From the NCBI GenBank assembly GCA_030018895.1, contig JASEHM010000001.1:2199-66198 (forward strand): 64,000 nucleotides of DNA, in the 5' to 3' direction. Shown here one piece after another: positions 21,001 through 63,000 of the stretch; position 1 is the first letter of the stretch, and every line of letters starts with the position of its first letter. The stretch is from Candidatus Omnitrophota bacterium. Its GTDB lineage: Bacteria; Omnitrophota; Gorgyraeia; Gygaellales; Profunditerraquicolaceae. Position numbers and translations under genes: made by a program. The notes under the pieces are model-generated. The model saw nothing but the letters and a program-made list of their open reading frames with translations. It was not told where the DNA came from and did no database searches.

Positions 21001-24000
21001 AACCCGTTGATTAAACTTGCGGCTCAAGAAGGAAAGCAATTCTGGGCAAGCCTTGTTTATATGTCAACGATAAGCGCGGAAATAAGCGCAGTTATAAGCG
21101 GAACAGATTGGTTGGCTACGCATGCGCATCCGATTTTAAAGCCGTTTGGTTTTATAGCCCAGAAATTTGCCTATGCTTTGGAAAGTGAGTATGGCATTAT
21201 ATCTCTCGGCCAATATGCAAACTTAACCTTTACCGGTATGACGAATATTGACCTTACTAATGTGGCATATCACTGCATGGGAGGAAAAGGAGATTTTCAG
21301 GCAAATTATGAAATTAATGCGGCTTTTGGCTTAATCCAAGAAACAAAGATAAAGGAAGAAGCAAGAAGAATTGTAAAAGAAATATCGGAATTAGAGGCTG
21401 AAAAAGAGCTAAAGTTTAGCCAGCAATATAGGCTTGAGGAATTAAGGCATAAGCTAAAAGATATATTTGCTTTGGCTAAGGCTAAACAATTAGAGGAGGA
21501 GGTAAAGAGGCTCAATGACTCAGCTAAACCCAGACAAGGGAAGACGTTTGCTGATGTGGAGGAAAGGTTTAATGAGTTAAAAGGGCAGGGATTTCCTGGG
21601 TTTGATCCTGTTAATGGGGATGAGCCCTGGGTTAAAGAGGTTAAGGGATATTTAGGGCAATGTAATTCTCAGCAACTCCAAATTTTAGAATCTTTAATCA
21701 AATCAGGCAAATTAAGAGCTGGGCCTGATGAAAAGTCAGTTTTTTACGGTGCTAATAATGGCGAAATTATTCTTATTGACATCAATAACAATCCTGATTT
21801 AGCCGCAACTTTAATATACGAACTTAATGCCTTCCAAGGTGGCACTCCTGAAGAAAATCAAAAGGTAGAAAGAGAATTTGAGATTGCTTCGCTCACCAAG
21901 GACGCTCGCAATGACGAAAAGAAAGCGGACGTTCGCAATGACGAGGGGGCGCAAAATGCGGACGCTTGCAATGACGTGGGGGCACAAAATGCGGTCGCTT
22001 GCGATGACGAAAAAAAAGTTGACACTTGCAATGACGAAAAGGCGCAAAATGCGGTCGCTCGCAATGACGAGGCGTCTCTATCAGGCATTAATTGGCAGAT
22101 GCCTATACAAGGATTTGACCCTAAAAATATACTGTCTGAAGATGAATTTAACGCTCCTCGCTCTGGGGGTAATGGCCATGAAGGCCTTGATTTCCGTGCT
22201 TCTGAGGGCACACCTATTCACGTAGCTGAACAGGGGATAGTTTTTTATGCAGGAGAAGGGAATGGTTATGGAAAGGTAGTTATTATTAATCACAATAATG
22301 GCTATTTTACTTTATATGCCCATAATCAAGAAAATCTGGTTAAAATAGGTGATAAGGTAGAAAAAGGCCAGAAAATTGGCCTGGTAGGTAAGAGTGGTAA
22401 TGCTGAGCAAATTGGAGAAATGTTGCATTTTGAGATACGGCAGGTGGCTAAAGAAGGAATTATTAAGGAATATTCAGATTTGGTTGCTTCGGAGAATGAA
22501 GAAAATGGTACAGTTAAAATTTTAGATCCTGCAAAAGAATTAGAAGCCCTATCAGAGAAGCCGCAATTAATGGTGGATATGATGATGTTTTCGGGGAATA
22601 GTTATCAGCATTCTTTTTTAAATATACCAGTAGATGAATATCTTGTTAATAGTTATCTTTTGGGTGTTGAAGAAGAATATTCAGACTTAGTTGCAAAAGA
22701 GAATGAAGATAATAACACAGTTAAAATCCTGAATCCTGCAGAGAAACTTAGCGGACAAGATCCAGATAATGCCTATTTTGGCTGGTCCCATGAAGAAGTA
22801 AATAGAGAGATGAGTAAATATGCAAGGGAAAATGCGATAAGAGAGCCTAATTTTGAAGAGAAGAGGTTGATTGAGTCGGCTTTAGGCAAGGCTTTAAGAT
22901 ATTTTAGCAAGACTAATTTGGGCAGGAACCCGCCAGGGGTTAAGATTATTGAGACAGAAAAATTAACCTTTGGCGCAACTTATGGTGAATACAATCAAAC
23001 CACTTCTCAAAATAGCCTCCTCTATATAGAAAAGCCGCTTATTAACAGTCCTAAATATAATCTTGCCTGCGTATTTATCCATGAACTTAATGGAAAATCT
23101 CATTTCTTAAACTGCTTAGCAGAGTATGATTTTAAATTAAGACAGATTGGAGCAGAATTTAGCTTACAGGTAAGTTTATCTCTTGATTCTCTGGCTAAGA
23201 ATTACCAGGAAACAAAAGCCAACTTTAGCAGAAATACCAAAAACACCATTATTGCCACTGCTCTCTTAGCCAGTCAAATTATCTCTCAGTTTTCAGCTTT
23301 TGCTATTCCTGCTGTAGAAGCCGCCCCTTCCGCAGTACACAGGGTGGTCACCCCAGAAACTTATACTGTTCGGAAAGGCGATACATTATGGAGACTTTTT
23401 AAGGAAAAATGGAATGATATTTATCAGTTGAATCCTCAGATTCAGGGCCGCAAAGGCGAGAAAATAGACCCTGCATATCCTGATACTAAGCAAATAGTAA
23501 TTATCTATCCAGGGGAGAACATTAAGATACGCGGGGAACAGGAACAGGTTAAAGCATCTATAGATAAGACTAAGATAGACAGGGAAGAGGTTAAAGTATC
23601 TACAAAAGATAAGACTGAGACAGACAAGAAACAAGTTTCAGAAGTAAATCAGGGTGTCATTCCCACCCCTGTTTTCACGGGGGTAAACTCCAGCGGGAAT
23701 TCAAGAGGGGATGACAGAATGGATGCCCGTTTTCACGGGCATGACAAAAACAAGAGGCGAGAACTTCAGAAAGCTGAACTGTTACAGATAAAAGGAATTA
23801 GACAGGAAGGAATCAGCCCAACCTGTGCGCTTGAACAGGTTTTTGGCCAGGGTTATCAGAATTGTCAGCAAGAATTGGAAAAGAGATTTAATACCTTGGT
23901 TAAAGAATCAGGGGTTGAAGAAAAAGGGATAAAATACCATGAAGAAGGCCTGACTTTGGAGGATTTGAAGGAGAAATATTTAGAAGGTAAGCGCTGGAAA

Positions 24001-33000: not shown

Positions 33001-36000
33001 GAGATTATCCTAAGAAGAGAATTAAACAAGCCAGAATTGAATTTAGACGAATTCATAAAATCTTTATCCGAGGAGAAGGCGAAGGTAGTGTTAAATACAA
33101 TAACTACCATATGTTACGACCGCAATGCAAATGATGAAAAGAAGAAATCCGATACTATTATGCACAAGTATTTCCTTCTAGCTTTAGTGAAGAATAAGGT
33201 AACTATCTCAAAAGGAGGTATTTTCAAGCCGGATAATTTACCTATTTCTGAAAAAACCAATATTCATGACGCAAAATATACAAGCTGGATGAGCTTTATG
33301 TCCAGAATGAGAGGAGAAATCAATTTTTCTCTTGACTGGGACCACATTCATCCATTCAGCGAACTTTGGTTTATACCTAATGCAGGAATGGAGTTTCTTT
33401 TTGATGACTGTCTCGTAGGCGGTCCTTACAATAGCGATATTTTTTCTCGCCCGATTTCTACGACTGCCAATGTTTTTGGTTTGATGGAAGAAGGCTGGCT
33501 TGACGGAGAGCAACCAGTTAAGGACGAGATTGATTCAATTCTTTTCTATGGGAAAGGTTTTCAAAAAGTAGCAGCTTTGAGGAACTTTGAGATGCTGGCT
33601 GCAGATGATAGCGTGCAGGAAGATGCTTTTGGTTTTGCAAAAGCCCTAATGCAAGGAGGCAGGTCAAGGGCATTTCACTTCTTTAAAATATTAAAAGGTT
33701 TAAGTAATCTTGTATTGGGAGCATTAATTCCATTGAAAAAATGGAGCGGTGATTCTTCAGAAGCAGTAAGATTACCAGCAGGCATTAAATTCTTTTTGAG
33801 CCCTAATATTTCCTGGACGAAAAAATTAGGGAATCTCATCAACTGGGGATTCTATATGAAAAAGCCCTCTGTAATGAGGGTAACAGTTTGGGTTATTATT
33901 CTTTATTATCTCGCTAATCTCAATCCTTGGTTTGGATTAGCTTTCTCTTTATGGTTTACTAGTATTCTTCTTGCTCAGGCAATTTCCTATGGCGGATTCT
34001 TTAAGTATACAAGTAAATTTGGAAGGATAAAAGGGGCATTGTTCTTTTTGCGGGATTTACTTACCAAGTTCTTTATCTTTTCCACTGGCATTATCCCTTC
34101 TTATGCTGATAGTGTAAAACGCGGTTTTAGCGCCTTTTGTAAGTTTATTAGGACAGGTGGCAAAGCCGGCACATTAGGCCGAACTAAAGGGAGTGAACTT
34201 TATATCTTTGGACATAAAGGAATCAGTGTAGCAGCTGCGCTGTTACTGTTTATTGCTTTTGCATCTTTTGATCCTATGAAATTTATAGTCTGGCTTCCTC
34301 AAATCGCTACAATCGTGGGCTGGTTAACGTTTATCTTCTTATTGGAACCGGTAAGTTCTAAAAAGCACGTACTTCTGAATATTGCTAATGTCGGATTAGG
34401 GTTTATATTAGGAATAGTAGATTTTGTTGCCAATATTATGACTAATTCTAAGGTTTTAAGTATCCTTACCGGCATACTATTATTATCACTTCCGGACTCT
34501 TTACCTGCCTGGATTCTTATATCTTGTATTGCTATAGCAGGTAGTATTGGCTTTGGCTTAAAATGGAGCAGGATGCTCTTTAATAAAAAAGTTTGTGAAG
34601 AGGCAAAGACTGTGCTAAAGCTGGCAAAGGATTATAAGATAAAGGGATATGCAGTTACTATACTTGAATCTTTTGTTTTGTCTACCGGATTTCATTACGC
34701 TTTAGAAGGTTATATTGAAGGAAGAATTAAAGGCTTACCTTCATTTATTATGGTATTACGTATTCTGTGGTTATCAAGAGATAAAGCACTTAACGAAAAT
34801 ATTAAAAAATCAGAGTTAGAAAATAAGCAAAAGGAAGAGGAAAAGAAGAAAGCAGAAGAGAGACAGAATGCAAAAGGCTCGTCTCCGGTAACGACTTCTT
34901 CACCTATTCCAACTCTAAATAATACTCAGCCAGATCAAATAATAAATACCGATAATGCGAACAACGAGCGCTTTGGCATTGCCAGAGAGCTTACCAAGGG
35001 CTTGGTAGCAGAATTACCCCAAGTATTAGGTAAGGTAGATATCTACGAGTTACTTAAAGCAGCTAATGGCATTCTGATTCTTGACCGTAACCGCTCACCC
35101 ACTGACATAGATGCTCATGCGGATAAAGAACGTAACTCTATTTGCGTCACTGTGCGTTCTGATGAAGACTTCCTTAATTTATCTATCCCAGAAGTAGCTA
35201 CCACCCTTATCCATGGAGCCATAGAGCTTGCCACAAAACAAGAAGCCTTAAGACGTAATATCGATTGGGAACAAATCGCATCGCTTGCCCAACAAACTGC
35301 CCTTAACTTTGCCCAGAAATATCAAGAAGTCATTACCCACAGATATGACCGCTTGCTGATGAGACAAGATATGCAGGTTGCCTTTAAAAATGGCTGGCGC
35401 GTAAAGAAGATTTACCAGACTGCCTTTAACCATGTTCAGGCTGATATGTATGCCTCCCAGGTTAATCCTGAAGATTATCCTCAAGACACTGAAGTCATCC
35501 CTGTAGCGGACCCCCCTCCTTATTATAATAAGGTAAGGGCTTTTGGTAATGGCTTAGCTAACCTGAATATAGTAAGGAACTTTGTAGAAAGGCTAATCCA
35601 GGAATTAAAATTAGAGCCGGGAACCTATAATTTAGTAGAACTTCTGGGTAATACCTTAATTATCGGCTTGCACGGTGGCGGCCAATCAGCCAGGAATCCT
35701 AAATATACCCAGATTGGTAAATTTAATGGTTATCTGCCTATAAGGAGCTTAAACAAAGACTTACCCGCTACCCTGCAGGAAGAACTCCTGGTGCCAGCAG
35801 CGGTCTTAAGCAGAATCTATCCAGACAACTTACCCGGCTACATCAATATCTACGGAGATGCCTTAATTACCTTTAATCCAAGAGAAGTAGAAAAAATTAT
35901 TAAGGCTAATCCTGAAATGGCCCAGGGTTTGATGATCTTCTTAAGAAAAGTTCCTGCTCGCGAAGCTTCTACTTGGGGTGCAGGTGCCGTAGATGAATCC

Positions 36001-39000
36001 TTGCGCATTCACCAATTTGTAGAAAAGGCCTTCAAGAGCACAGGTGAAATATCCAAAGGTATTATCCATGTGAATGAAGAGGGCTTTGTAATAGACACAG
36101 ATTTAGATAAAGCCAAACAACTTCTTGCCAATAAATACAGGCTCTTAGTAGAAGACCAGTATATTCTTATGAACACTGCCTTTGCCATATTAGGCCCACT
36201 TGCCCTTGTGCGCTGGGCGATTCTTTCAGGCATTGACATAGATACAGAAGGTAATTTTATCATTACAGAAAAAGCCAAGGCTTCTTACAACACAAAGAGC
36301 TTTTATGACTTAGTCCTAACCTATGGCTCAAGTGTAGATACCTTTGGTGATTTAGTGCCTCCTATGGGCGAAGACTTAAATATCATTGACTTTATCTTCT
36401 CTGTTGGCACCAAACAGCTTGAAGAGGCCAAGAAGAAAATCCACGCTGAAGCCTTACCTATCATAGAAGACATGGAAGGTAGGCTACAGGATTTACGCCG
36501 AGACTTCAAAGAAGATAGTTTCTCCTTGAAAAAATTAGAGGACAGTTTGAATAGCCTCTTAGAATCTCTTAAGAAAAGAATCCAAGAGGTTCAGGATGAG
36601 AAGACTGTTTCTGTGTTAAATGTCTGTGTATCTAGCATCTCTCAAATCCTGCTGCGTCAGATGCTCATTGAGGTTTTACGCCGCGGTGGCGCTGGCTCAA
36701 AAGCATGGGCTATACCCATAGAGGGTGAGTGGTTGGATACTGGAAGAACCATCGAGGAAGCACAAATCATTCTGGCCGAGGGAAAAGCCAACAGGCAGAT
36801 AGCCTCGGTGTTTGACTTTGAGAAGTCCATTGCCGCAAAGACCAATGTAGCAAGCCACTCTTTTGTCAGCATCATTGAGGCAGAACCTAAATCTCAAGTT
36901 GCCACAGATTCCATTCAGATTGCCTCTTATCTGAAAGGCAAAATTCATATGGACTCCAGATCTCAGGTGCACCTTGTAGACTGGCAAGGCGATTTACACC
37001 TCAACTCAGACGTGGTGATGTCTGAGGCAACCACCAGATATCAAGAGAAAGAATGGGTCGTGCACCTGCTCTGGGGATTACAGGATGGAGAGACCAATAA
37101 AATCAAGACCCACATAGGCCGTTCCTTAGAGGAATGGTTCACTGAGTTAAGTATTGACATAGATAAGATTTGGCCTCCTGCAACTGCGCATCTCTTAAAC
37201 ACTGCCAGAATCTTCCCTGGCTTAAGTCAGCAGATTTTAGAGCAAGGAAAGCAAATAGATGACTTGGATAGAGAGCTCTTTGACTCTATGAATGATATCT
37301 GGGGCTTCTTACAAGGACATACTGCCCCAGTTCCTGTTGCCTGGCTGAAAGCTTTAGAAGCAGAACGCCTCTTCTCTATGACTGATGCCTACAGTAAACC
37401 CGCCACTGAACTGATGCAACAGAGAAGAGAAGGATTGATGAGGAAGAAGAAAGCAGAAGAGAGACAGAATGCAAAAGGCTCGTCTCCGGTAACGACTTCT
37501 TCACCTATTCCAACTCTAAATAATACTCAGCCAGATCAAATAATAAATACCGATAATGCGAACAACGAGCGCTTTGGCATTGCCAGAGAGCTTACCAAGG
37601 GCTTGGTAGCAGAATTACCCCAAGTATTAGGTAAGGTAGATATCTACGAGTTACTTAAAGCAGCTAATGGCATTCTGATTCTTGACCGTAACCGCTCACC
37701 CACTGACATAGATGCTCATGCGGATAAAGAACGTAACTCTATTTGCGTCACTGTGCGTTCTGATGAAGACTTCCTTAATTTATCTATCCCAGAAGTAGCT
37801 ACCACCCTTATCCATGGAGCCATAGAGCTTGCCACAAAACAAGAAGCCTTAAGACGTAATATCGATTGGGAACAAATCGCATCGCTTGCCCAACAAACTG
37901 CCCTTAACTTTGCCCAGAAATATCAAGAAGTCATTACCCACAGATATGACCGCTTGCTGATGAGACAAGATATGCAGGTTGCCTTTAAAAATGGCTGGCG
38001 CGTAAAGAAGATTTACCAGACTGCCTTTAACCATGTTCAGGCTGATATGTATGCCTCCCAGGTTAATCCTGAAGATTATCCTCAAGACACTGAAGTCATC
38101 CCTGTAGCGGACCCCCCTCCTTATTATAATAAGGTAAGGGCTTTTGGTAATGGCTTAGCTAACCTGAATATAGTAAGGAACTTTGTAGAAAGGCTAATCC
38201 AGGAATTAAAATTAGAGCCGGGAACCTATAATTTAGTAGAACTTCTGGGTAATACCTTAATTATCGGCTTGCACGGTGGCGGCCAATCAGCCAGGAATCC
38301 TAAATATACCCAGATTGGTAAATTTAATGGTTATCTGCCTATAAGGAGCTTAAACAAAGACTTACCCGCTACCCTGCAGGAAGAACTCCTGGTGCCAGCA
38401 GCGGTCTTAAGCAGAATCTATCCAGACAACTTACCCGGCTACATCAATATCTACGGAGATGCCTTAATTACCTTTAATCCAAGAGAAGTAGAAAAAATTA
38501 TTAAGGCTAATCCTGAAATGGCCCAGGGTTTGATGATCTTCTTAAGAAAAGTTCCTGCTCGCGAAGCTTCTACTTGGGGTGCAGGTGCCGTAGATGAATC
38601 CTTGCGCATTCACCAATTTGTAGAAAAGGCCTTCAAGAGCACAGGTGAAATATCCAAAGGTATTATCCATGTGAATGAAGAGGGCTTTGTAATAGACACA
38701 GATTTAGATAAAGCCAAACAACTTCTTGCCAATAAATACAGGCTCTTAGTAGAAGACCAGTATATTCTTATGAACACTGCCTTTGCCATATTAGGCCCAC
38801 TTGCCCTTGTGCGCTGGGCGATTCTTTCAGGCATTGACATAGATACAGAAGGTAATTTTATCATTACAGAAAAAGCCAAGGCTTCTTACAACACAAAGAG
38901 CTTTTATGACTTAGTCCTAACCTATGGCTCAAGTGTAGATACCTTTGGTGATTTAGTGCCTCCTATGGGCGAAGACTTAAATATCATTGACTTTATCTTC

Positions 39001-42000
39001 TCTGTTGGCACCAAACAGCTTGAAGAGGCCAAGAAGAAAATCCACGCTGAAGCCTTACCTATCATAGAAGACATGGAAGGTAGGCTACAGGATTTACGCC
39101 GAGACTTCAAAGAAGATAGTTTCTCCTTGAAAAAATTAGAGGACAGTTTGAATAGCCTCTTAGAATCTCTTAAGAAAAGAATCCAAGAGGTTCAGGATGA
39201 GAAGACTGTTTCTGTGTTAAATGTCTGTGTATCTAGCATCTCTCAAATCCTGCTGCGTCAGATGCTCATTGAGGTTTTACGCCGCGGTGGCGCTGGCTCA
39301 AAAGCATGGGCTATACCCATAGAGGGTGAGTGGTTGGATACTGGAAGAACCATCGAGGAAGCACAAATCATTCTGGCCGAGGGAAAAGCCAACAGGCAGA
39401 TAGCCTCGGTGTTTGACTTTGAGAAGTCCATTGCCGCAAAGACCAATGTAGCAAGCCACTCTTTTGTCAGCATCATTGAGGCAGAACCTAAATCTCAAGT
39501 TGCCACAGATTCCATTCAGATTGCCTCTTATCTGAAAGGCAAAATTCATATGGACTCCAGATCTCAGGTGCACCTTGTAGACTGGCAAGGCGATTTACAC
39601 CTCAACTCAGACGTGGTGATGTCTGAGGCAACCACCAGATATCAAGAGAAAGAATGGGTCGTGCACCTGCTCTGGGGATTACAGGATGGAGAGACCAATA
39701 AAATCAAGACCCACATAGGCCGTTCCTTAGAGGAATGGTTCACTGAGTTAAGTATTGACATAGATAAGATTTGGCCTCCTGCAACTGCGCATCTCTTAAA
39801 CACTGCCAGAATCTTCCCTGGCTTAAGTCAGCAGATTTTAGAGCAAGGAAAGCAAATAGATGACTTGGATAGAGAGCTCTTTGACTCTATGAATGATATC
39901 TGGGGCTTCTTACAAGGACATACTGCCCCAGTTCCTGTTGCCTGGCTGAAAGCTTTAGAAGCAGAACGCCTCTTCTCTATGACTGATGCCTACAGTAAAC
40001 CCGCCACTGAACTGATGCAACAGAGAAGAGAAGGATTGATGAGGAAGTTGAAGAAAACCTCATCCCCTATTTCCACCCCTATTTCTAACTTCTCAGATAT
40101 AAAGACATTAATAAAAGCTTGTAGAAATGCAAATCCACAGGCAAAAATATTTGTTCCAGAGAAATCGAGTTTTGGAAAACTCTCTTTAAAAGAAATTCTC
40201 AGTTTAACAACCTCCAGTTCCCTGATACTTTCCTTAGAATCTAGACTAGTAGCAGCCATCGCCAAGAAGAATTCTTTTATCCAAGGCTCCAGCCCGCTTT
40301 CAGAAGTTATCCTGCCTGGTTTAACGTGGGGATTTTATGTTTTTGAGATTCGCGAATCAAAGGTAGGTGGAATTGCCGATGTCGCTGAAGGCCTTCCGGA
40401 AGCAATAGTAAGGGCTAAGACGCTTGATGGAAAGCCTCATACAGTTTATCGGGTGACCCCGTATTATAGAGATATATTCACTATGACTAATAAAATTCGT
40501 TTGGAAGACCAGAAATTAGTAGCTCAACTATGCATTCCTTATCAGCACCAAATAATTACTGTGGATGTATATAAAAGATTGCATGTTTCTAATATGGTTG
40601 ATTATCTGCTTGTAAACGAAATATTTAGCCGCCCATATGATAAATCAGATACCAAGAATCAAACTGAATCTGAAGAAGAGGTAGTAATATTTAATATTGT
40701 TTCAGCAATACTCATTATTTTAGGGGAAACTCAACCTGATGTGCTGCTTCTATCAGATTGGCAGACAGGTTTACTGCTTTCCTATTTAGAAGAAAGTGTT
40801 TCAGAGCCAACCGCGATATTAAGGAAGGTTGTTGTTAAGACAGAGAAAGGCAATGTTTCTGGTGAAGAATTAGTAAACGAATTTGTACGTTTAAAAGTAT
40901 ATGAATGGATGATACCGATTTGTTGGATTAATAATGAAGCTTATAGAGGGCAATTTCCTGTAAAAAATAGAGCGGACTTTAAGGCAAAAACAGGATTAGT
41001 TTCTCAGCATGGCTTTGAGTATGCAAGATGGATTACCCCAACAAGAGAAAGCGAACAATTTATGATTATGCTTAAGTTAGGGATAGAAAGCACTAATCGT
41101 TGTGGAGGAAAAATAGTCACAGTTAGCCAGGCTTATGCCAGAGAAATTATGGGTATAAACCTTAAACCAGAAAATCATCCTGGGATGCTTCACGGTATTT
41201 TAAAAAGAACAGAGGTTACAGGAATACTAAACGGCACTCCTAAAGAATGGAAATACATTACGGATTTAAAACAGAAGAGAGAGGCGAAGCGGTTGTTACA
41301 AGAAATATTAGAGTTAGATAAGTTTGCCTCTGCAATGTGCGGAGGGGAAATAGAACGATTAAAGCGAAAAAATTTTTGCTGTTTGGGAAAACGCTTGCGT
41401 TTTAGTTATAGTTATCTTAGCTCCTTGCCTTCTGGCTCCTTATTATACCTCGCCGTGGCTGGTGGGATACAAGGCGTTGTTGGTTCAAGCCAGAGGGCAG
41501 GGAGTTTTTTGATAAAGGAGTTTATTAATAAGGTAAAAAAATTATTACCACAAAAAGGAGGCGCAGGATGTATAGACTCAGAGAGGTGCAGATTAGGTCT
41601 TTTGAGGTGTTGCAGGAAAACAAGGGAATTTTTGTTCTGGCAGGGTTTCCGGGTTGGCATTCTACTTATGATTTCCTTATTCAGTCTAATGGAGAAGTTA
41701 AGGGAAGAACACACGATAATTGGCAGCTCCTTACAGATGAGACAGCTGAGATTATTAAAGGGAAGTTTAAAGAGGTACTTACAAGGAATTGATTTAGCGT
41801 TTGAAAGCAGCTCGGCGAGGTTGACGCAGGCACAGAAAAGAGTTACTAACTCGCCGTTAAGGTTGGAGAAAGAAACAGAAAAGATAAACAAAAATTTGAA
41901 TGAGCTTACGAAAAATGCAGTGGCATTATCAGACCAAAAAAAATTTTCAATTGAGGAGGATATACTTCTTATTGAGACTAACCTTAAGGAAATAGGGCGG

Positions 42001-45000
42001 TTGGGGTCTTTAGCAGAAGATTCACAAAAAATAGAAAATGACATTGATTTTATTCAATTACTCAATGAGGTAATAGATGATTTTAAAAAGAGGTTTCCTG
42101 ATATTACTTTTGTGGTTGAGAATAAGGCAGATGAAATTAAATTACCTGGTATTCGAAAAATAATAGAACACATCTTAAGGGAAATTTTCCAGAACAGTGT
42201 TAAGCATGAAGGTAAACAGATTAATATAGAGATTTCAAGAACAGAAGGCAAAATAGAGATTAGTATAGAGATTAGCATAATTGATAATGGTGAGGGTATT
42301 TCTAAAGAGAAACTGGAGAGGATTCGTAAAGTTTTGGCGCAGGCAGATACAAAGCAAAGCGAAAAAGAGAGTAGGGGCAGAGGCCTTTCTTATTTAAATA
42401 AACTTCTTTATGAGTACACTTTAATTGAAGAAAACCTAGAAATATATTCTGAAGGTGAAGGCAAAGGCACAAGGGTAAGATTCTTTTTACCTTTAGCTCA
42501 AGAAAAATACAGGGTGCCAGATATTCATAATCGGATAAAATTTATTATCCATGAGATAAACAATATTCTATGTACAGTGCAAAAAGCTTTTTTAAATGAA
42601 AAAAATACTGTGTTGGCAGATGCAACCAAAGGCACAATTTTAGTAGTGGATGATGAAGAAAACATTTGCGTCATATTACAAATGTGTTTCGAACAAGTTG
42701 GTTATACGGTTGTTACTGCTGCCACAGTAGAACAAGGATTGGAGACTTTCAAAGAAAGGCAGAAAGAAATAGGATTAGTTTTAATAGATTATACATTACC
42801 TGGTGGAGATGGATTACAATTAACAGGGAAGATTAAAGAGGTTTCTAAAGATATTCCTATATTTATTATGACAGGAAGGAGTCTACGCGAAGAAGATATT
42901 TTAAACTCAGGAGCAAAAGAAGTAATTCCTAAGCCTTTTAAATTTGAGGAATTACTAAAAAAGGTAGAAGAAGCGGTAACAGTTCAGCGTTCAGAAGTAA
43001 ATCAGGGTGTCATTCTCGCCCCCGTTTTCACGGGGGTAAACTCCAGCGGGAATCCAAAGATGGTTGACAGAATGGATGCCAGTTTTCACGGGTATGACAA
43101 AAACGGGAGGCGAGAACTTCCGGAAGCTGAACTGTTACAAGAAGCGGTATCTTCAGCAGTAGAGATTGTTAAAATGTTGTCATTGCGAGCCCGCCACACT
43201 TTGTGGCGAGGCGAAGCAATCACTTTTTTGAGATTGCTTCTTGCTTCGGTTTCGCCTCGCAATTGCAATGACGCGAAAATGGATTTTTTCAGCGTTTTCC
43301 TAGAATATCACTTGATACAACAAGCCTTAAAGGGTTTTTTCGGTCGACTTAATTCAGACTTTTCTAAACAACTTTTAAGCTCTCGCCAAACAATTCCTTT
43401 AGCAGGTTCTCCTTTTACAGAATTAGTTTCTAGTTCTTTGTTTGTTTTTAGTCTAACAGAGGCTATTAAGTTGATTCAGATTTTTGTTAAGGAGAAGGAA
43501 GGGGCTGAGATTGGAGAGAAGATAGGGAGCCTTAGTTCTGAAGAACTAAACGTCCTTACGGAAGCGATTATTGCTTGGAAAGAGTTGGAAGAGATTGAAG
43601 TAGGAGAGAAAGAAAAGAAAAGATTCATTGATATCTATTCTTCTAATTGCCAGTTCAGTAGTTTTGTTGGTTTTTTAAAAGATGCTATGCAGTCAAGGTT
43701 AGTAGAGCAGAGGGCAGAAAGAGAAAGTATTCTTTATGAAATTGTCGAGGAAATTGGGAAATTAGAGGGGGTTAGCCCGGATAAAATAGAGGAAGAGTTC
43801 GCTAGATTTAAGATGAAGGCATTAGAGGAGCTTCTTAAGGCATGGGGGTATAGCTATGAGATAGATGAGGAAGATAACTTAAGCCTTATTTGTTCAACAG
43901 ATGGACTAAAGGAGTCGAGTTATAAATTAACACCGCGAAAGCCTAATGACCCGGAAAAGAGTTTTCTTTGGGATTTTCTTAAAAAGTATTGGGAGCAGAA
44001 AAATACCCTTTCTGGGCAAAAGAAATTATTGGAAGGATTTAAGAAAAAATTGCCTATAGAGATAGTAGAAGTAATTATCTGGGATGGCGTTTTTCGGGGG
44101 CTATGGATTAAAGATAGATTCGCCTTTCTTAAGAAATTTTATCCGGAAAAAGTAGATAATGGAGTTTTAGATCAACTTGCCTCTGGCCATATCTTCTCAA
44201 GATTACAAAATATTTGCCTTCCTCAAAATTTAAAAGACGACTTAACTTGTTATCAAGGAGTTTTGCCTAAAGAGCTTATTTTTCTCCTTCCTCTCCCGGG
44301 AAAAGGAAAATATATTTATATGTTACATAACTGGGCTCAGGCCAGTATTGAAAATAAGCAATTTATCCCTCTAATTAAAGAAAAAAAGATTTTTTTCTAT
44401 TTGTTTAGGGCAATAGATGTCATTATTAGAGAAAAGGAAAAGATAAAACAAAGGATAACTGATAGCCGTACAGGTTTGTATAATGCCTGGTATTTAAAAG
44501 AAGAGCTGGAGAGACAAATAGGTTTGGCCAAAAGGCATGATAATCCCCTGGCGATATTAATGCTGGACATAGATCATTTTAAGAATTTTAATGATACATA
44601 TGGCCATTTAATAGGCGATATGGTTTTAAAGTATGTTGCTGAGGTGTTTAAGAGGATGGCAAGGAAAACGGATATTGTTTGCCGTTATGGCGGGGAAGAA
44701 TTTATGATTATCCTGTCTAACGCGGATTTAGAAGGAGGGGTGGTTGCCGCAGAGAGAATTAGGGAGGCGGTGAAAGAAATGAAAATTAAAAATATTAATG
44801 AAAAAATAACTATAAGCATTGGCGCAGCTTCTTTAGATAAGAGTTTAAGAAGTATCTCTGACTCTGAACAATGCCAAAAGGCATTTATTAAAGAGGCTGA
44901 TCAGGCGGTTTATATAGCCAAGGCAAAGGGGAGAAACCGAACAGAATTTACTATAAAACAGGTAATCCCTTATTTAGAGCCGGAAGAAGAATTATTTCCT

Positions 45001-51000: not shown

Positions 51001-54000
51001 AACTTTCGTTTCTTGGAGAGGCTGGGATATTTTCCTGTTACAGATACTCAATTGAACCATTTTTCTCGAGAAGTTCAGGACTTACTGGATGCGCATCTGG
51101 AGTTGGGCATGATGCCTCAAGAGGCAGTCTTTTCTTTAGGAAGCATGTATTATTTGCAAGGAATATTTTTGCTGGCTTTAGATTATAAAGAAATGGCAAG
51201 AAAAAATATCAACAAGGCTATTGACCAATTTGGTTTAATTATATTTAAAAAGGGGGGTCCTTTTGGGCTGATGGCATACCAATTAATTCTAGAAATTCAT
51301 CAAGAGATGCCGTTATTCTTTGGCCAGCTTATTCACAATGGTGGAATGGAATTAACGTTAGATGGGTTAGCTGAAAAGTATGGGAAACATTGTCCTGAAG
51401 AGATTATAAAAGGCCAGACAGAGTTCATAAAGAATTTGACAGAACAGTCCCAGTCGGAGAATGAACTCGCAACTTCTTCTTCTGCAAGGAGTTGTGTAGA
51501 AACGGTACTATTAAATTCACTAAACTCTTCAAGCCCTGTTAAGCGGGTAGGTCCTGTTGGATCCGTCTCGAAATTTGAGTCTCTGCTACGAAAAGAGTTG
51601 GCCGCGATGAAGGATTCCGGGGGAACGAAGTTGTACCCGTCCAATGTGTCGCGTCAGAATAGGGTCACGATTGCGCCGTGTCGGGTGGATAGGGTCACGA
51701 TTAGTAAAGAGGCCCGGGAGATATTCAAAAATGCAAGGCCCAAGTCCAGCCAGCCGTCGATCATGTCGGAAAAAGACCTTAACGGCAATCTTGATTTCAT
51801 ATCGTCCCTGTGTGAGTTCGTAAAGCAGTTTATAGAGGTATTTTGGACAGTGAAATCTTCTGAGGATACGGATCACGAGAACAAGGATGGCGTTTCTGCG
51901 TCTTCTGTCAAGGAAGGATCTTCTTCGGTCGTTTATTCCAGCAGTCCGAAGGCTTCTTCCTCATTTAAGCAGGCACGAAGCCGCGCTCCGCCCTTTGTAG
52001 TTGTGTTATTAATAGTTCCCTTCATATTTTGTGAAGGAGAGACAAGGAATTTATCAAAATCCCTGCCCCCATCTTTACCTTCGTTTTCAAAGCACAGTAG
52101 AGTTCTTGAAACAAAATCTCTACCCACATCTTTATCTTCGTTTTTAGATCATAGTAGAGTTCCTCCCCTTTCAAATTACAGTGGAGTTCTTAAAAACGCG
52201 CGCATTAATTCAAAAGATCGATTTGGAATAAAGGCATGGACAGCCTATACAATGTTGGATGAGATTACTAAGAAGCTGTATTCTGAAAAAACAGTATCAG
52301 AGCGTCGTTTAATAAATAAATACGTATTAACCAATATTTATCATGAATCGCTTTTGATATATAGGAGGCCTATATATCGTGGCGGGACTGAGCGCGGCTT
52401 GGCTCAAATAAAGGTGGGCACTGCCAGGGATATCCTTGAGAGGCTTGTAAAGGGAAAAGCTAATTGGGAGGAGTTTATTGCAGATATTAGCGGTTATTCC
52501 TTCTATGCAGACCTTTTAAACGAGAATAATGCTGTTCTTGGCAAGATGTTAGAAGATAATGATGGGTTTAGTTTTATTCTTTCAACAATATATAGTATGA
52601 ATAGGTTAGATAAGGAATCTCTGCCTGTAGATTTAGAGGGGATGACAAAGTGTTGGGCCAATTATAATGGGATTGGGAAAAAGCAAAGAACGCCTCCAGA
52701 GGAAAAAAGATTAAAGGATTATAAAGTTCATGCAGAGATAATTAAGCCTATTCTTGAAAGAATCATTTCTTTAGAAAGGTTCTTAAATTTTGAAGAGTTT
52801 CTGAATCCTCCAAAAAATATTGGAAACTGTTTCCGTCCCAATCGGGAAACTGTTTCCAGCGCAATCGGGACAGTGGGATGCAGTGAAGTTGACATAAGCT
52901 GTTCTGCTTTGAAAATGAAGGGGTTTGTCGGTTCGCCAGTTAGCCGGTTGCTTGAAATTGCCGGCTCGCCGGTGAAATATAGCTTGTTAGTTGATATGTT
53001 GTTAATACTTGTTGATTTTGATGGTTTTTGCAAGGCAGGGATGGAAGATGTTCACGGTCTTGAGGATAGGATTAGGGTCTCCTCGCCCGTATTTTCGATA
53101 CCGAAAGATACCGAAGATTTGGATTTTGCTTGGAATTTGATGGAATTAAATGCTTTTAACCCCGGATTAGAACATAAAATTTCTTTTGTCTCCAGTCCAA
53201 TTTTTAAAATGCGGCCGAAGGTAACAGTTCAGCGTTTGGAAGTTCCAAGCGCTGAACTGTTACCTTCGGAGACTGAAATTGGGGGTAAGAAAAGGAAGGA
53301 AGAGAATGATCTTTTTATTGAGATGGATACGTTAAAAAAGAAATTGATGGGTTGTCTTAGAAAAAGTCCTTTACTTGCAAAAATATTACAATGGATTTTA
53401 GATGAATTAGAAAAAAAGAACAATAATAATGGAATCATAAAAAATAAACTGTCTTTTTTTAGTCCACACCAGAAGCGTAAAGTAAAACAAGAAATTTTTG
53501 CTTGGATGAATAAGGAGCATTGTGAAGTGGCAGCCGAGTTTTCTACGGAGTTAATTTTTCTAGTTGTGGATTTGGTTAAAAATATAATCTTTTCTATAAA
53601 AAACGAAAAAATAAATAAAGATAAATTAGAGGAGATTCAGTCTTCTTTGGATGAGATTGTCGCTTTGAATAACAAGATTGAGAAAATAGCGGAACTGTGG
53701 CGAAAGATAAAAGAGGAGATAGTGGAACAAAATGTAGGCATAGTAACATCTATCGTGACTAAAAACTATTTTAATGGGGCTTTATTCTTTGAGGAGCGGA
53801 TACAGGCAGGGTTGATTGGGCTAGCTGAGGCTGTAGAGAGGCACGACTACAGAAAAGGTATATTATTTTCTACCTATGCTGATTGCTGGATTAAGCGGGA
53901 AATACTAATGGTTATGCAAAAGGAGAGTAGTGATATCTGGATTCCCGTGTATATGCAAGAGAAGCATACAGGGCTTGAGAATAAAAAGACAGAATTAATC

Positions 54001-57000
54001 CAGAAACTTCTAGGAGACCCGACAATTGGCCAACTTGCTCAAGCCTTAGGATGGCCAGTTGAGGAAGTAAAAGAAGTTTTAAATGTTCCGATGCATGTAG
54101 TTTCTCTATCTACACCTGTGGGTAAGGAAGGAGAAACTTCTCTTGGCGAGCTTATAGAGAGTCCACAGGCACGGGATTTGGAGGGTTCAATCATAGAAGA
54201 ATTGAGTGCTGAACGGCCTGAAGAGACCCTTAAAAAGGCCTTGCATCAACTTCTTCTCATCGATAGGCTAATTGTATGTTTGCATAATGGCTTGTCTATT
54301 ACTGGAGAAGTAGTTAGCAATGAAGAAATTAATCAACTTAAATCATCTATTAAAAAAGAAGCACTAAATAAGGCTATTATGAACATGAACCCCTTAAGTT
54401 ATCGCAAGATTGGTGAGCTATTGGGATACACCGGGGAACGCATACGTCAACTCAAAAAACAAGCGTTACTAGATTTAAAACAACTAATAGGGGGAGGTAT
54501 AATCTTAACCGATAGTATGATACTTAGCAAAGTTAAGCCTATTAAGAAGATCCCTGGTGTAATCAGAATTTTAATGGAAGAAAAAGGAATTATTATTCCA
54601 TCTATGGTTGTTAAGTCGTTAGGGATTTCTATTCCGACACTTACTAAATATATTAAAGATAATCCTTCTGATGAGATAAAAGATTTGATGAGGCAGCTAG
54701 GTATTCATAATCAGATTCTTCGGGCGATAAAAAGGCTAGAGAGGCTGCCCAAAGCGAAACAAAAACTAATTACGGTAAAGATGCTTGTTCAAGAAATAAA
54801 GTTTTTTTCTTTAACAGACATAGAAAAAGCAAAAAATGAAATAAATAAACGTATAGAAAAACATCTCGGGGCGAGAAAAGAAATATTAAAACATGTGGGA
54901 GCGGTGCCAATATTCAATTGGGAAACTGTCAATTGGGAAACTGTTTCCAGCTTAATCGGGACAGTGAGACGCAAGGTCAAAATCGCCGGCTCGGAAGTGG
55001 ATTTATCTCTAACTTCTTCTTCCGTAAGCAGTTCCGTTATTAATTCAGCAGGCCAAAGCAACAACGCGCCGGAAAAAATTGAAATAATTGAATTTTCGTT
55101 TCTGAAAAATACTATGGGTTGTATCATAGAAGCTGGTAAAAGAGATATGCAAAAACAGAAGATTGAGAAAATTTTGATTTTGCGTAATTTAGGATTTATT
55201 TTAAAGGAACTAAAAGAGTTAAAGAATATGAATGCTATTTTGAATAAATGGGCCATAGAAATTATTATAAGGTTTAGAAGACAGCTTATTGAAGAATTTA
55301 GAAAAACAGAGAATTCTATTTCTAATGGCAAAGAAAGCAGTAATGACATAAATATTAAGGAGCAGTTTAAAAAAATAAATATTAGAGAAAAAATAATATT
55401 AAATTTTTATTGGGTAGGAAAGAATCGGTGCTGGAAGATTTTAGAAGAAGGATTGAGTAAGCCTTGGTTTATTCCTGATATTGGAAGAGTGGATGAAGAG
55501 CTGGTGCAGGAGAAAAAAAGAAAAGAGGAGTTGATAGCCACCATCTTAGGGCAGTTACAAACAGGCACAATGATTCAACGTCAGATAGAAGAGGAGCAAG
55601 ATTTAAGACAATATATACCGCGAATAAAGATAAAGATTGAGTCTGCGGAAGAAAATCTGGGAGAGGCAGCAGTATGGGCAGAGGAGGTTTTCGCAAAAGG
55701 AGTAGATAGTTTTAAAAAAGATGCAGATACAGTGGAGAATAGGCAACTCAAGGCATTTGCTATGGAGTTAGGGGGCGTATTGGAGAATATGATTTGGCTG
55801 GGAGTTCGTGCTTATGATTATCAAGATGAAGAGACGATAGATTTTATAGGTAAGGCCAAAAAGGAGGAAATGATTAAAGATTTAGTCAAAGGATTGATAA
55901 GTAGTATTGATCAAGGCCTTAGTAAAGAGCCTGAAATTATGCAATATACTTTGCAAATTATAAGACAATATTTGCAGGGGCTTCTTTTAGAGGATTTAGC
56001 CTTAGGATATGAAAACGTGCTTATGCAAAAAAGGGTTAAGTATGCATTAAGAGAAGCATTTATAGGTTTCAAGAGGCTAAAAACAGAGATGCTTGATTAT
56101 CTGCATGAGCTTTTGAAAGAAAAAAAAGAAAAAGTAGATGTTAATAAGTATTTCAAAGAAGGCATTGAAAGAATGCTTCAGGGTATAGGAAATTATCTTA
56201 TTAATAAAGTAGAATATCAAACAGCGCATTATGAAGGAGAAGACTCAGTGATTTTAAAATTGAATTATATACCTACTCCACAAGAATTTTTAAATTGCTT
56301 TATAAAGGTTTATGGCAAAAAATTGGCTGCAATTATTACTTGTGCAGGAACGCCGCAGGCACATTATGCTTTGTTGGCTGAGTCTGAAAGAATACCAGTT
56401 TTTATTATTGCCAGGGAAGATACGGATTTAATTAAACAAAATGATAAAGTTGTGATTTTTAGTAATGGAGAGGTGATTATTAATCCTAGTCCGCAAACAC
56501 AAGACGAATTTGCCGTTGCACAAGGAGTTCAACAAAAGATTGACGAATTTTATAGTGAAAAGGCGCCGGAGTTGTTAAAAATACCGGTTGAAATGAACGC
56601 TGATTCTAAAGATGAGATAGAAGTAGCAGTGAATATTGTCCAGGGTATTGGCCTGGTAAGGACTGAGAACTTATGCCAGGGAATTTTACCTTTTTTAATT
56701 ACTGAATGGCAGGATTTATTCAGGGAAATTTTAAAATCTGCAAAAGGAAAAAGAGTTACTTTTAGAGTCATTGATTATCAACCGGATAAAAAGCCTTTGC
56801 CTTTTGCTTATCAACGCTACCTAAGGCCTAAATGGTGGAAAGATCATCCCCTGGGCAGAGCAGTGGCATTACAGATATTACAGGCTCTCATCAGATTGGG
56901 AAAAGAAGGGTATGGTTTTTTTCGAGTAATGTTTCCTATGGTAGAAGATGTTAGTGATTTGCAGGCAATAGAGCAGATAATAAAAAAAGCGCAAGAGAAG

Positions 57001-60000: not shown

Positions 60001-63000
60001 AGGGCAATTATTTGTTGGAAGATTTTGTATATGAAATTAAATAAAAACTACCGCGAGGATTTATTATGGGTTATGCGGAATGAGTCTGAAAGAAATAACC
60101 TTATAAATGATTTAAAGCAGACAATAAATTTTACCGATGAAGAAAAAGAAGATTTTAGGATTCCTTTAGAAGAAGGGATATCTACTCGTACGAGCAAAAA
60201 AATTCTTTCCCAATTATTACGGTTTTATAGTAAAGAACCAGTTATTTATTTAAGGAACCAGGAAGTAGCTTATAGTATATTTAGGCAATATTTTAGCGAA
60301 GCGCTGTTTTTAAGAATCTTTGGTCATTTTCAGAGCAGCCAAAAACATGTTGAAAAAGCTATCCATGCCTGCGAGCAGATATATAAGGTAAAGGATTTAG
60401 GCCTGTTTATGACAACCTTGCCAAGGGATACAATCAATTTTTATCTAAGATTAGCTGATATAGAAGAAAATTCAGATAGAAAAAAACAATTCTTGCAAGA
60501 GGCGCAAGGATTGTGCTGCGGGTTTTTAACTGGTGATTATTTTAAAGAGATTATAGCAGAAGCTGATTCCCAATTAGCTTCTAGAGAGTTTATTAAATTA
60601 ACAGCATGGAAACCTGAAAGTTTGTGGGAAGGCCTTGCAAAAACTTCATTAGAAGGACTGCTTAGGAAAAAAATTCAGCTATATGTTTTTGATATGAATG
60701 GGGTCAAGAATATTCAGAAAAAGATAGAAGAAATATTATTTAAAAAATCAATAATATTCTTCGGAGGGACAAGCAGAAGAGCAGGCCTTAAACCACTTCG
60801 CAATTATCCTGTTTCTACTAATATAAATATAAAAACATCAGAAATAAATCAGGATAATGTTTTTTTATCTATTGACCTAAAGAAAAAGGTAGACTATTTT
60901 AAGGGAATAATTTTTTCTATCTTACTTGAAAAGAAATGTGAAGAAAATTGGGATATAAAAGGCAAAATAATTCCCTATTTTCAAGGGCCCTTGATATTAA
61001 TAACAAAAAAGAAAGAGCAAATTCCTGAAGTATGTAATGATTTGGTAGAAGAATTACAGGGGGCCGTTGAAAATCAATATACAGTAGAGACAACAAGTAT
61101 TGGTATGGAAGTTTCGTCGATTGACCGAGGAGATGTACTGCTTTATTTAGCAGAGCAGATTGCTAATAAAGACAAAAAGAACCTTATAGATTTATTAGTG
61201 CAAACCTTTGTCGTAGGCAATAGCCGCGCAGATCTATTTATGCTCAATATTGTAGCCAGTCATGGCGGGTTAGCTATATTTGTGGGCCAGAATATTCCAG
61301 AGGGCCTATCTAAAAAGGTTCTTGTAATTCCGCTACAAAATCCTCAAGGAATAGAATTTCTTATAGAGTTAATTGCTAAGGCCTCCAACTCGGCAGGTAT
61401 AGAAAATCATCTCCAGAGCCTGCAAAATTCTGTTAGTGAAGAGGAAACTGTTTCCAGCGCAATCTTGGCAGTGGGATGCAGTGAAGTTGACATAAGCTGT
61501 TCTGCTTTGTTGAAAATGAAGGGGTTCGTCGGTTCGCCAGTTAGCCGGTTACTTGAAACCGCCGCCTTGGCGAAGGGGGATGGGGGTCAGTTCTGTTGTA
61601 ATTCTTTGCCTATCAATGGGGGAATTCTGGGGACACAAGACTTAATTCGGAGTACTGATTTGCCATCCGCTATTGCTATCGCCTCGCCGGTGAGGGATTT
61701 GTTTGCAACTTCTTTTCCCATAATAGATTCCGCAGAAACGACACTAAATATACTGTTTTTATCTCGTTTAGGCGCTCTGCGTACAGGTACAAATGCCCCG
61801 CCATTAGTTGTTAATAATGCCGCCTTTGTCTCGGTATTATTTCGCACCTATTTAGAGACCTCATCACAACCTACCCCTTCTATTACTATTCCAGAACTTA
61901 TTGTCTGCTATTTATTACTTGCTACTATTAAGGTATCCTTTGCTTCGTCGGCGGTGGAGAATTTATCTACAAGTTTTTCTTTCGCAGGCATTTTTTTGAC
62001 TATTAAGAAAGTGTTTAAAGGGTCGAAGATAATAATAGATAAGGTTATTGGAGTCGGCGAAAATGGATATAGAAAAATAGAAAAAATTATCTGGCAATTT
62101 TTACAGAAAGCTTGGCAATGTATACAGAAAATTCCGGTCGGCTTTGCGCCGGACAGTGAAGGCCGGGTTACCGTTGATGCTCTCATAAAATATCTTTCTG
62201 TGGCTCCTTTCGCAGTAGATGCGACGTTGGAAGCCTTCTTTTCGCAATTGAAAAATCCCAAAGCTCAGGCAGCAATTGCTTCCGGTGGCCTTGGTTTTCT
62301 TGCCGGAGAAACCCTTAATGCTTGGGTCAAGGTATCTCAGCGGGTAGTCGGGTTTATGCCTCTTTATGAAGGTAATATTAACTGGGATAGTGAGGCAGGG
62401 ATACAGCCGATTATCGGGTCAGGCGGCAAACCGCTTACTCTGGAAGTCAATTTTAAGGAGGTCGGGCAATTACAGGAGAAGCCATATAAGGTTAGCTACT
62501 ACATTATTAACGCCAATGGCACTCCGGTAATCCTGGCGCGCCAGCCGAAGATTAACTACGCGCTTTATCCTTGTGATTCGGATAAATATCGGCAGATGGC
62601 TTTCTTAGGTAGGGCATATACGGAATTTTTTAAATATTTAGGCGTTGTCCCGGATATCTTGCGCTTCAATGAGGCGCAGGTATTTTTCCTTCTTACTGCG
62701 ACTGATAATGATGTTGATTGGTTTGCTCGGGAGAGAGAGAGAACTAAAACCGAAAGCCGCAGCGTTCATGAGAATACCAAATACATCCTTTTTACCACGC
62801 ATACCCCGGAAGTAGCCGCTTTACCGAGAGAAAACGTAGGCCGGTTAAAGAACCTTATCGGTAGCGGGATGATTCCGAAGAAAGCAGATGGAAGTGATTA
62901 TGCGGATGGGGAAGAATTGGATTTTGTTCATCATTTAGTTAACGACTCGCGGGTCGTCGTTATCAATGGCGTTTCCCAGGAACACGGGGAAGTAACTAAG

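Follow-up and report, generated by a model that had tools for sequence, protein, structure and literature searches.

The repeat described here lies at positions 42976-43272 of a 64,000-nucleotide stretch of a Candidatus Omnitrophota bacterium genome (contig JASEHM010000001.1; the whole stretch is hereafter the window). At this locus a single giant open reading frame (ORF) passes through two adjacent palindromic elements, E7 and E8, immediately downstream of a response-regulator receiver (REC) domain. With a probability of roughly 0.7, we read both elements as relics of mobile DNA that are translated as part of the giant protein and have been kept because the frame stays unbroken and the linker tolerates extra sequence. 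E7 is a miniature inverted-repeat transposable element (MITE) with IS66-type ends, and E8 corresponds to the core of a related element. The features at the locus are listed below.

1-63999, plus strand: host ORF, frame +0, at least 21,333 aa, running past both window edges; a mosaic of enzyme and signalling domains
42637-42969, plus strand: REC domain (Pfam PF00072 Response_reg, E=1.9e-20, profile positions 1-111 of 111), directly upstream of E7
42968-42975, plus strand: left target-site duplication AAGAAGCG, 8 bp, a perfect match to the right copy
42976-43138, plus strand: E7, 163-bp MITE, read in frame as VTVQRSEVNQ...PEAELL, with terminal inverted repeats at 42976-42998 and 43116-43138
43072-43099, minus strand: hairpin within E7 that matches the published Ssn-related motif (SRM)
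43139-43146, plus strand: right target-site duplication AAGAAGCG; E7 plus duplication make 171 bp, or 57 codons
43147-43176, plus strand: ten host codons (VSSAVEIVKM) separating E7 from E8
43177-43275, plus strand: E8, core-only palindrome GTCATTGCGAG...GCAATGAC without IS66-type ends; nhmmer match to MITE profile positions 28-107, E=2.7e-9

The initial annotation placed the start of E7 right after the receiver domain, and this is confirmed: the Pfam match is complete and E7 begins two codons past its end (...KKVEEA/VTVQRSEVNQ). Inspection of the sequence indicates that the conserved Asp, Thr, and Lys positions of REC are retained. The inverted-repeat arms of E7 are 23 nt long and 87% complementary, with the terminal repeat GTAACAGTTCAGC. 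E8 is flanked by a direct repeat, AAAATG, at 43171-43176 and 43276-81 (105 nt apart), which could have arisen by chance. Both elements are in frame and hence presumably translated; the peptides predicted at the E7 junction and within the element include VEEAVTVQR and SEVNQGVILAPVFTGVNSSGNPK.

The flagged inverted repeat has many related copies in the window, and the repeat family is therefore far beyond chance. Copies were located with an nhmmer profile built from copies elsewhere, together with inspection of the sequence. Six of them bear transposon ends, and 7 of the 10 element units fall between 15 and 24 kb. The copies other than E7 and E8 are as follows.

603-702, plus strand: E1, 100-bp palindrome of two inverted SRM/NTS-like hairpins, no IS66-type ends
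15102-15132, plus strand: E2a, weak fragment (E=0.07)
15178-15243, plus strand: E2b, left half of a MITE (profile positions 1-67, E=1.6e-16)
16369-16669, plus strand: E3, composite MITE with a degenerate left end, an intact right end and extra hairpin modules inside
19294-19429, plus strand: E4, canonical 136-bp MITE (E=3e-32) with a perfect duplication TTAAAAAA at 19286-93 and 19430-37
21877-22075, plus strand: E5, right half of a MITE core, amplified to a 33-nt tandem array just upstream of an M23 peptidase domain
23628-23785, plus strand: E6, second copy of the 163-bp type, left end eroded, 90% identical to E7 over 23636-23785 (E=2.4e-35 against E7)
53215-53269, plus strand: E9, 55-bp perfect-type palindrome whose core (53221-53263) is two IS66-type ends joined

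The array in E5 (21925-22072) holds 4.7 copies of the 33-nt unit (...CGCTCGCAATGAC...), which in frame encodes a repeat of 11 residues (...ARNDE...). A composite transposon or decayed insertion sequence spanning 15178-16669 was considered and rejected: the interval shows neither a transposase remnant nor a matching duplication, and E3 possesses a left end of its own. The 375 residues encoded between E2b and E3 (15244-16368) are rich in Ser, Thr, Gly, and Asn, have no homologues and are modelled as coil at a pLDDT of ~25. GC skew is ~0 in the 16-18 kb bin and ~0.2 across most of the window.

The copies that retain ends can be assigned to a parent family. One genome per species was scanned for one end of the element, returning at least 84 loci; among those listed, ~33 come from at least 12 Omnitrophota assemblies. 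The typical copy in Omnitrophota genomes is 136 bp long and has common ends around a GTCATTGCGAG...CGAAGCAATC...CTCGCAATGAC core. Perfect 8-bp duplications border all 17 complete copies examined, E7 (AAGAAGCG) and E4 (TTAAAAAA) included, and these duplications are 74% A+T. Two full-length elements of ~2 kb (L001:3485-5477 and L053:77-2008) share the ends of E7 and an 8-bp duplication; they encode DDE_Tnp_IS66 transposases (PF03050, E=8.6e-34 and 1.8e-35) plus a DUF6788 protein, and blastn searches with their ends recover the window copies. IS66 family members typically have ends starting GTAA and generate 8-bp target duplications (PMC11946415). Because ends and duplication match both the transposase-coding elements and this norm, the end-bearing window copies are, by sequence, genuine mobile-element insertions and MITEs of an IS66-family element. 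No transposase remnant was found within the window.

The same ends extend beyond the Omnitrophota. The L053 element, from Collierbacteria, is a full-length IS66-family element with the same 13-nt end in a candidate-phyla-radiation genome. In gut Firmicutes (Fusicatenibacter / Lachnospiraceae) the 13-nt end is found as 28-bp mini-palindromes (GTAACAGTTCAGCnnGCTGAACTGTTAC), several per 8-kb locus (L004, L005, L008, L021, L026, L034, L035, L044, L057, and L069). These mini-palindromes and the L053 element together indicate that this IS66-end subgroup is very widely distributed. On the minus strand of a Hainich-Omni-XXI contig (L019), an ORF of at least 2,458 aa that runs off the locus stops 27 codons into a MITE, so that a further very long gene seems to owe its C-terminal tail and its stop codon to a MITE.

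Every window copy occupies a stop-free phase and none shifts the frame. All nine end-repeats are read in a single phase (VTVQ / AELL), and reading the transposon ends in either of the remaining phases gives TAA or TGA. Stop-free combinations of orientation and phase number one in six for E7, and likewise for E3 and E6, and two in six for E4, E8, and E9; the product of the stop-free fractions over nine loci is ~3e-5. Intact copies also add multiples of three nucleotides (136+8=144; 163+8=171). Elsewhere in the Omnitrophota these MITEs occupy intergenic positions or the ends of genes, with 0 of the ~33 loci listed in mid-ORF. Given stop-free phases here and no mid-ORF copies there, the giant ORF keeps only insertions that do not interrupt it, and selection for an unbroken ORF is clear. 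The initial annotation had proposed that selection on insertions could be seen inside this one gene, and at the level of the reading frame it can. The nine mobile-element loci are thus internal evidence that the full-length ORF is held open by selection, and bear on the question of whether giant ORFs are real genes. Constraint on the peptide is not apparent, because 11 of the 12 codons that differ between E6 and E7 differ non-synonymously.

The 21,333 codons of frame +0 include no stop, compared with 726-2205 stops in each of the five other frames (the window is ~36% G+C). The gene exceeds 64 kb and probably represents one of the giant genes of Omnitrophota. Pfam identifies Helicase_C, Peptidase_M23, two fucose-pyrophosphorylase domains, starch-synthase-type and GT1 glycosyltransferases, HATPase_c, Response_reg, GGDEF, sigma-70 regions 2-4, and PEP-utilising domains. 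Together these make up ~8-11% of the protein, leaving ~90% without a detectable family. This domain make-up, together with repeats that occur mostly in Omnitrophota genomes, makes an Omnitrophota source very probable.

What does the position of the elements say about the protein? At the flagged locus, Pfam and AlphaFold2 agree in placing E7 and E8 outside compact domains, so that the structural check bears out the initial proposal here. Positions 42601-43800 were modelled with a 45-sequence REC alignment, the region downstream of E8 resting on a single sequence. The REC domain (model residues ~11-130) is predicted at a pLDDT of 94-98, with helix alpha5 at residues 115-135. The remainder of E7 (136-174) is predicted as coil (pLDDT 32-49), the spacer and E8 (~175-230) as low-confidence helices (pLDDT 46-61), and a downstream helical domain begins at ~281, some 55 residues past E8 (pLDDT 78-90). 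In this model E7 and E8 would lie between two confidently folded units.

These observations suggest how the locus may have formed. E7, a non-autonomous MITE, would have been inserted by an IS66-family transposase acting in trans, which would have created the 8-bp duplication AAGAAGCG. Inside it lie two NTS/SRM-type hairpins in inverted orientation, and E8 corresponds to the hairpin core of the commoner 136-bp MITE minus the transposon ends. Both could have persisted as multiples of three, counting element plus duplication (171 bp, and probably 105 bp), each in a stop-free phase. The ~57 and ~35 extra residues would fall in the helical linker leaving the last helix of REC, where a floppy loop may be tolerated, and the same filter could account for the other copies in the ORF. 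We infer that copies survive where the protein tolerates them, and that neither chance nor the choice of DNA target decides this.

The principal competing explanation is chance placement, whereby MITEs are filtered for frame and stop codons only and their positions reflect random insertion into a mostly unannotated ORF. We regard this as possible, if doubtful. Position statistics were computed for eight independent loci, with thresholds chosen post hoc and a flagged copy that had been selected for abutting REC. Eight random sites would all miss Pfam domains with P=0.51; because Pfam covers so little of the ORF, a position "between recognisable domains" is nearly what the null would predict. 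The E1, E2, E3, and E4 loci (603, 15.1, 16.4, and 19.3 kb) have no domains detectable with Pfam, and the unannotated sites are also blank with NCBIfam; four or five loci lie in sequence without a detectable domain, where one structural model is uninformative. A permutation test on disorder propensity gave P=0.03-0.10 according to the window used. Against chance, one site lies within 2 residues of a domain edge (P=0.033 for at least one) and two lie within 40 residues (P=0.06 for at least two), both values being post hoc. E7 and E8 are moreover independent and sit ~10 codons apart in one linker, and no copy breaks a recognisable domain: when the elements are removed in silico, none of the excision junctions is spanned by a Pfam domain. 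Enrichment at domain boundaries is therefore suggestive and not demonstrated from one window, given the post hoc thresholds and a flagged copy chosen for that very property.

The other sites that the initial annotation had placed between domains fare unevenly. E5, the copy at 21,880, stops 9-10 residues short of the point at which alignment to solved M23 structures starts. The copy at 23,627 (E6) lies 33 residues past a LysM-like match, in a Lys/Glu/Thr-rich stretch, but that match is weak and sub-threshold (Pfam E=0.014, PDB E=0.027). The solo palindrome at 53,214 (E9) sits in unannotated sequence, with 100 residues or more between it and the first sigma-70 homology downstream. E4 is in a hydrophilic loop between membrane helices, 12 codons after a predicted membrane helix. 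As for the statistical test that had been proposed, edge proximity gives P=0.03-0.06, disorder propensity P=0.03-0.10, and domain avoidance P=0.51, and the part of the selection claim that concerned domain boundaries is not established.

Several further points weigh against reading E7 and E8 as tolerated mobile-DNA relics. The statistics on domain boundaries are weak and post hoc. The segment downstream of E8 was modelled from one sequence with zero homologues, and a second AlphaFold model, covering the 15-16 kb copies (14101-17700, single sequence), has a mean pLDDT of 33.6 and is uninformative. Helix alpha5 is predicted to extend through the first ~10 residues of E7; the linker probably formed a single long helix ancestrally, and the insert may perturb coupling between REC and its output rather than being neutral. 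E8 and E1 lack IS66-type ends with an 8-bp duplication, E8 having at most a 6-bp flanking repeat. Clear duplications are not seen at E8, E1, or E9; E8 and E1 are either core-only relics or eroded MITEs, or else hairpin repeats that spread independently. A protein word-index search with the REC-GGDEF region returned generic REC/GGDEF matches only, comparison of the insert-free protein with a metagenome collection gave no confirmed orthologue, and when the 437 aa between the domains were searched exhaustively with HMMER, none of 1.84 billion representatives matched. No orthologue that would allow an empty-site or presence/absence comparison was found in any collection searched.

Targeting at the DNA level could also cluster insertions. 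If the transposase, or whatever spreads the hairpins, preferred AT-rich 8-mers or existing palindromes, accumulation in linkers would be a by-product. The A+T content of the duplications fits such a preference, as does the tendency of elements to cluster or nest (E7 with E8, the modules inside E3, and the concentration of units at 15-24 kb). However, AT-rich 8-mers in a compatible phase are only ~1.2-fold commoner outside Pfam domains than within them (41% vs. 33%), the E7 duplication AAGAAGCG is not especially AT-rich, and targeting gives no account of why every copy holds a stop-free phase. We consider it unlikely. The insertion-site preference for linkers offered in the initial annotation accordingly finds little support, the duplications being AT-rich and nothing more.

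The RNA of 42976-43272 is predicted to fold at -116 kcal/mol (z=-6.5), which raises the idea that the elements now serve the gene as flexible linkers, repeat spacers, or mRNA hairpins that pause ribosomes or mark processing sites. Amplification of a half-core to an in-frame 11-aa tandem repeat beside M23 would be in keeping with this, and so would the retention of old, eroded copies. Strong folding is, however, inherent to any palindrome, and the non-synonymous differences between E6 and E7 and the intergenic location of the same MITEs in other Omnitrophota genomes also count against exaptation. In the scanned region no promoter- or terminator-like site lies inside the elements (one weak promoter-like match is upstream of them), and they have no Rfam match. 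Such a role is very improbable as an explanation of the locus. Least credible, to the point of being negligible, is that the inserts are removed as introns or inteins, or are assembly artefacts. No Rfam family, self-splicing introns included, is present anywhere in the window, and the inserts, at 31-57 residues, contain no Hint/intein domain in Pfam, which effectively refutes an intron, an intein or a known RNA family. The copies also carry transposon ends and duplications, and the frame is open across all of them.

The hairpins inside the elements may point to a second association. The published degenerate SRM motif, HGTCWYN(0-2)YYVSBRHN(0-5)WNVSBRGN(0-2)RNCYNB (PMC11893778), matches the window at 660-687, 23719-23746, and 43072-43099 (minus strand), three matches compared with 0.11 in shuffles, and these are the cores of E1, E6, and E7. 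The commoner GTCATTGCGAG core, found in E4 and E8, does not match the published motif. SRM/NTS hairpin repeats are associated with GIY-YIG Ssn single-strand nucleases (PMC11893778), the only paper returned by a literature search with the literal element sequences. No Ssn gene is present within the window. Among seven metagenome contigs that bear the E7-type hairpin, two, neither of them from the source genome, have a GIY-YIG gene directly adjoining it; at L091:493-783 and L088:168-449 a small Ssn-like nuclease gene lies beside the hairpin (PF01541, E=2e-15). This suggests that the IS66-type MITEs of the source lineage carry Ssn target hairpins.

In-frame copies are also found in other proteins. 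The E7-type peptide occurs in frame in an essential enzyme, an Omnitrophota valyl-tRNA synthetase (ValRS; P0057), with the duplication footprint KNH...QNH. In Thermus thermophilus numbering, the insert falls between residues 203 and 208. This hairpin loop belongs to the crystallised editing domain, 12-16 residues in from its edge. Because this insert sits within a domain, "tolerated loop or hinge" is a better description of the permissive sites than "domain boundary". Profile searches with the element-encoded peptides otherwise returned short spurious ORFs, the real in-frame hosts being ValRS and the N-terminus of a TPR protein. The MITE region of P0057 comprises residues 206-276; two more insertions relative to T. 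thermophilus, at 495-530 and ~569-590, look repeat-derived (...SLSRDEVEPS..., ...SAHRLTGSSAHRLT...). A YD/RHS-repeat-like ORF at ~1637-1885 of L090 (metagenome contig Ga0209343_10144300) has a small E7-type hairpin in frame (...RLLSVIPAPVFTGVNSSGIQTLYSY...).

Other features of the giant ORF were noted. A near-identical tandem duplication of ~2.6 kb (34817-37474 and 37418-40075), with mismatches at the edges only and one fucose-pyrophosphorylase domain per copy, is either very recent or an effect of assembly. Unrelated to the IS66-type MITE is a second in-frame repeat family of 130-160 nt (52816-52975, 61442-61572, and 54921-54976; the first two copies 89-96% identical), which opens with a small palindrome, GGAAACTGTTTCC. 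An HExxH motif (...ALFHEITHSF...) at ~14400-14430, upstream of E2 in otherwise unannotated sequence, may mark an unrecognised metalloprotease module.

The inserts amount to a natural insertion scan of a giant protein, marking sites that tolerate 30-60 extra residues, and with many genomes such a scan could map module boundaries in proteins that are ~90% unannotated. They also link an IS66 transposon shell, Ssn-type hairpin repeats, and protein-coding sequence, which are usually treated apart. Could the MITE family be adapted to life inside very long ORFs? A canonical copy with its duplication makes exactly 48 codons with one stop-free phase in each orientation, a property of nearly all copies from several Omnitrophota species; about one third of insertions into coding regions would therefore be frame-neutral. 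The idea is a long shot, but if true these elements could regularly supply new linker and repeat sequence where giant genes fill a sizeable share of the genome. The 11-aa array beside M23 would be an example, and stable hairpins may punctuate translation between modules.

How do these elements compare with known systems? The host ORF resembles the Omnitrophota giant genes ("Archaeovorins"; bioRxiv 10.1101/2023.11.21.568195 and 10.64898/2026.06.07.730766) in being tens of kb long, with HATPase_c, REC, GGDEF, PEP-utilising, and glycosyltransferase domains amid unannotated sequence, but differs in that the window has no detectable orthologue in the databases searched. Palindromic repeats and MITEs are unmentioned in the text of both preprints, and in-frame insertions in that of one. 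The window MITEs share with the IS66 family an inverted repeat starting GTAA, an 8-bp duplication, and full-length relatives with identical ends. In contrast to the classical three-ORF IS66, however, those relatives have one transposase ORF plus a DUF6788 ORF, and the MITE interior is a hairpin-repeat core that is not transposase-derived. The cores of E1, E6, and E7 begin GTCATTCCCGC..., as does the Neisseria NTS, whereas the hairpins here, compared by sequence alone, are inside a transposon shell and within coding sequence.

Among the intragenic MITEs of other bacteria, the ERIC, BOX, and Correia types are likewise small and non-autonomous and sometimes fuse in frame with host ORFs (PMC10969869), but they represent other families in other hosts. 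So many retained copies in one ORF find no mention in the literature searched and are, to our knowledge, undescribed. The closest analogue appears to be the Rickettsia palindromic elements (RPEs; Ogata et al., 2000), which, according to the summary in PMC10969869, are palindromic repeats of ~100-150 bp lying in frame within protein genes. The likeness is one of mode of working, not of sequence membership, with the function of the host protein presumed: in both cases many in-frame palindromic copies would add tolerated, typically surface peptide, and a housekeeping gene is hit too (here ValRS). Unlike RPEs, the window copies carry IS66-type ends and 8-bp duplications, have an identified autonomous parent and Omnitrophota hosts, and pile up in one giant ORF, most copies in related genomes being intergenic. 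The comparison would extend translated selfish DNA of the Rickettsia type to another host-dependent lineage, in a different phylum.

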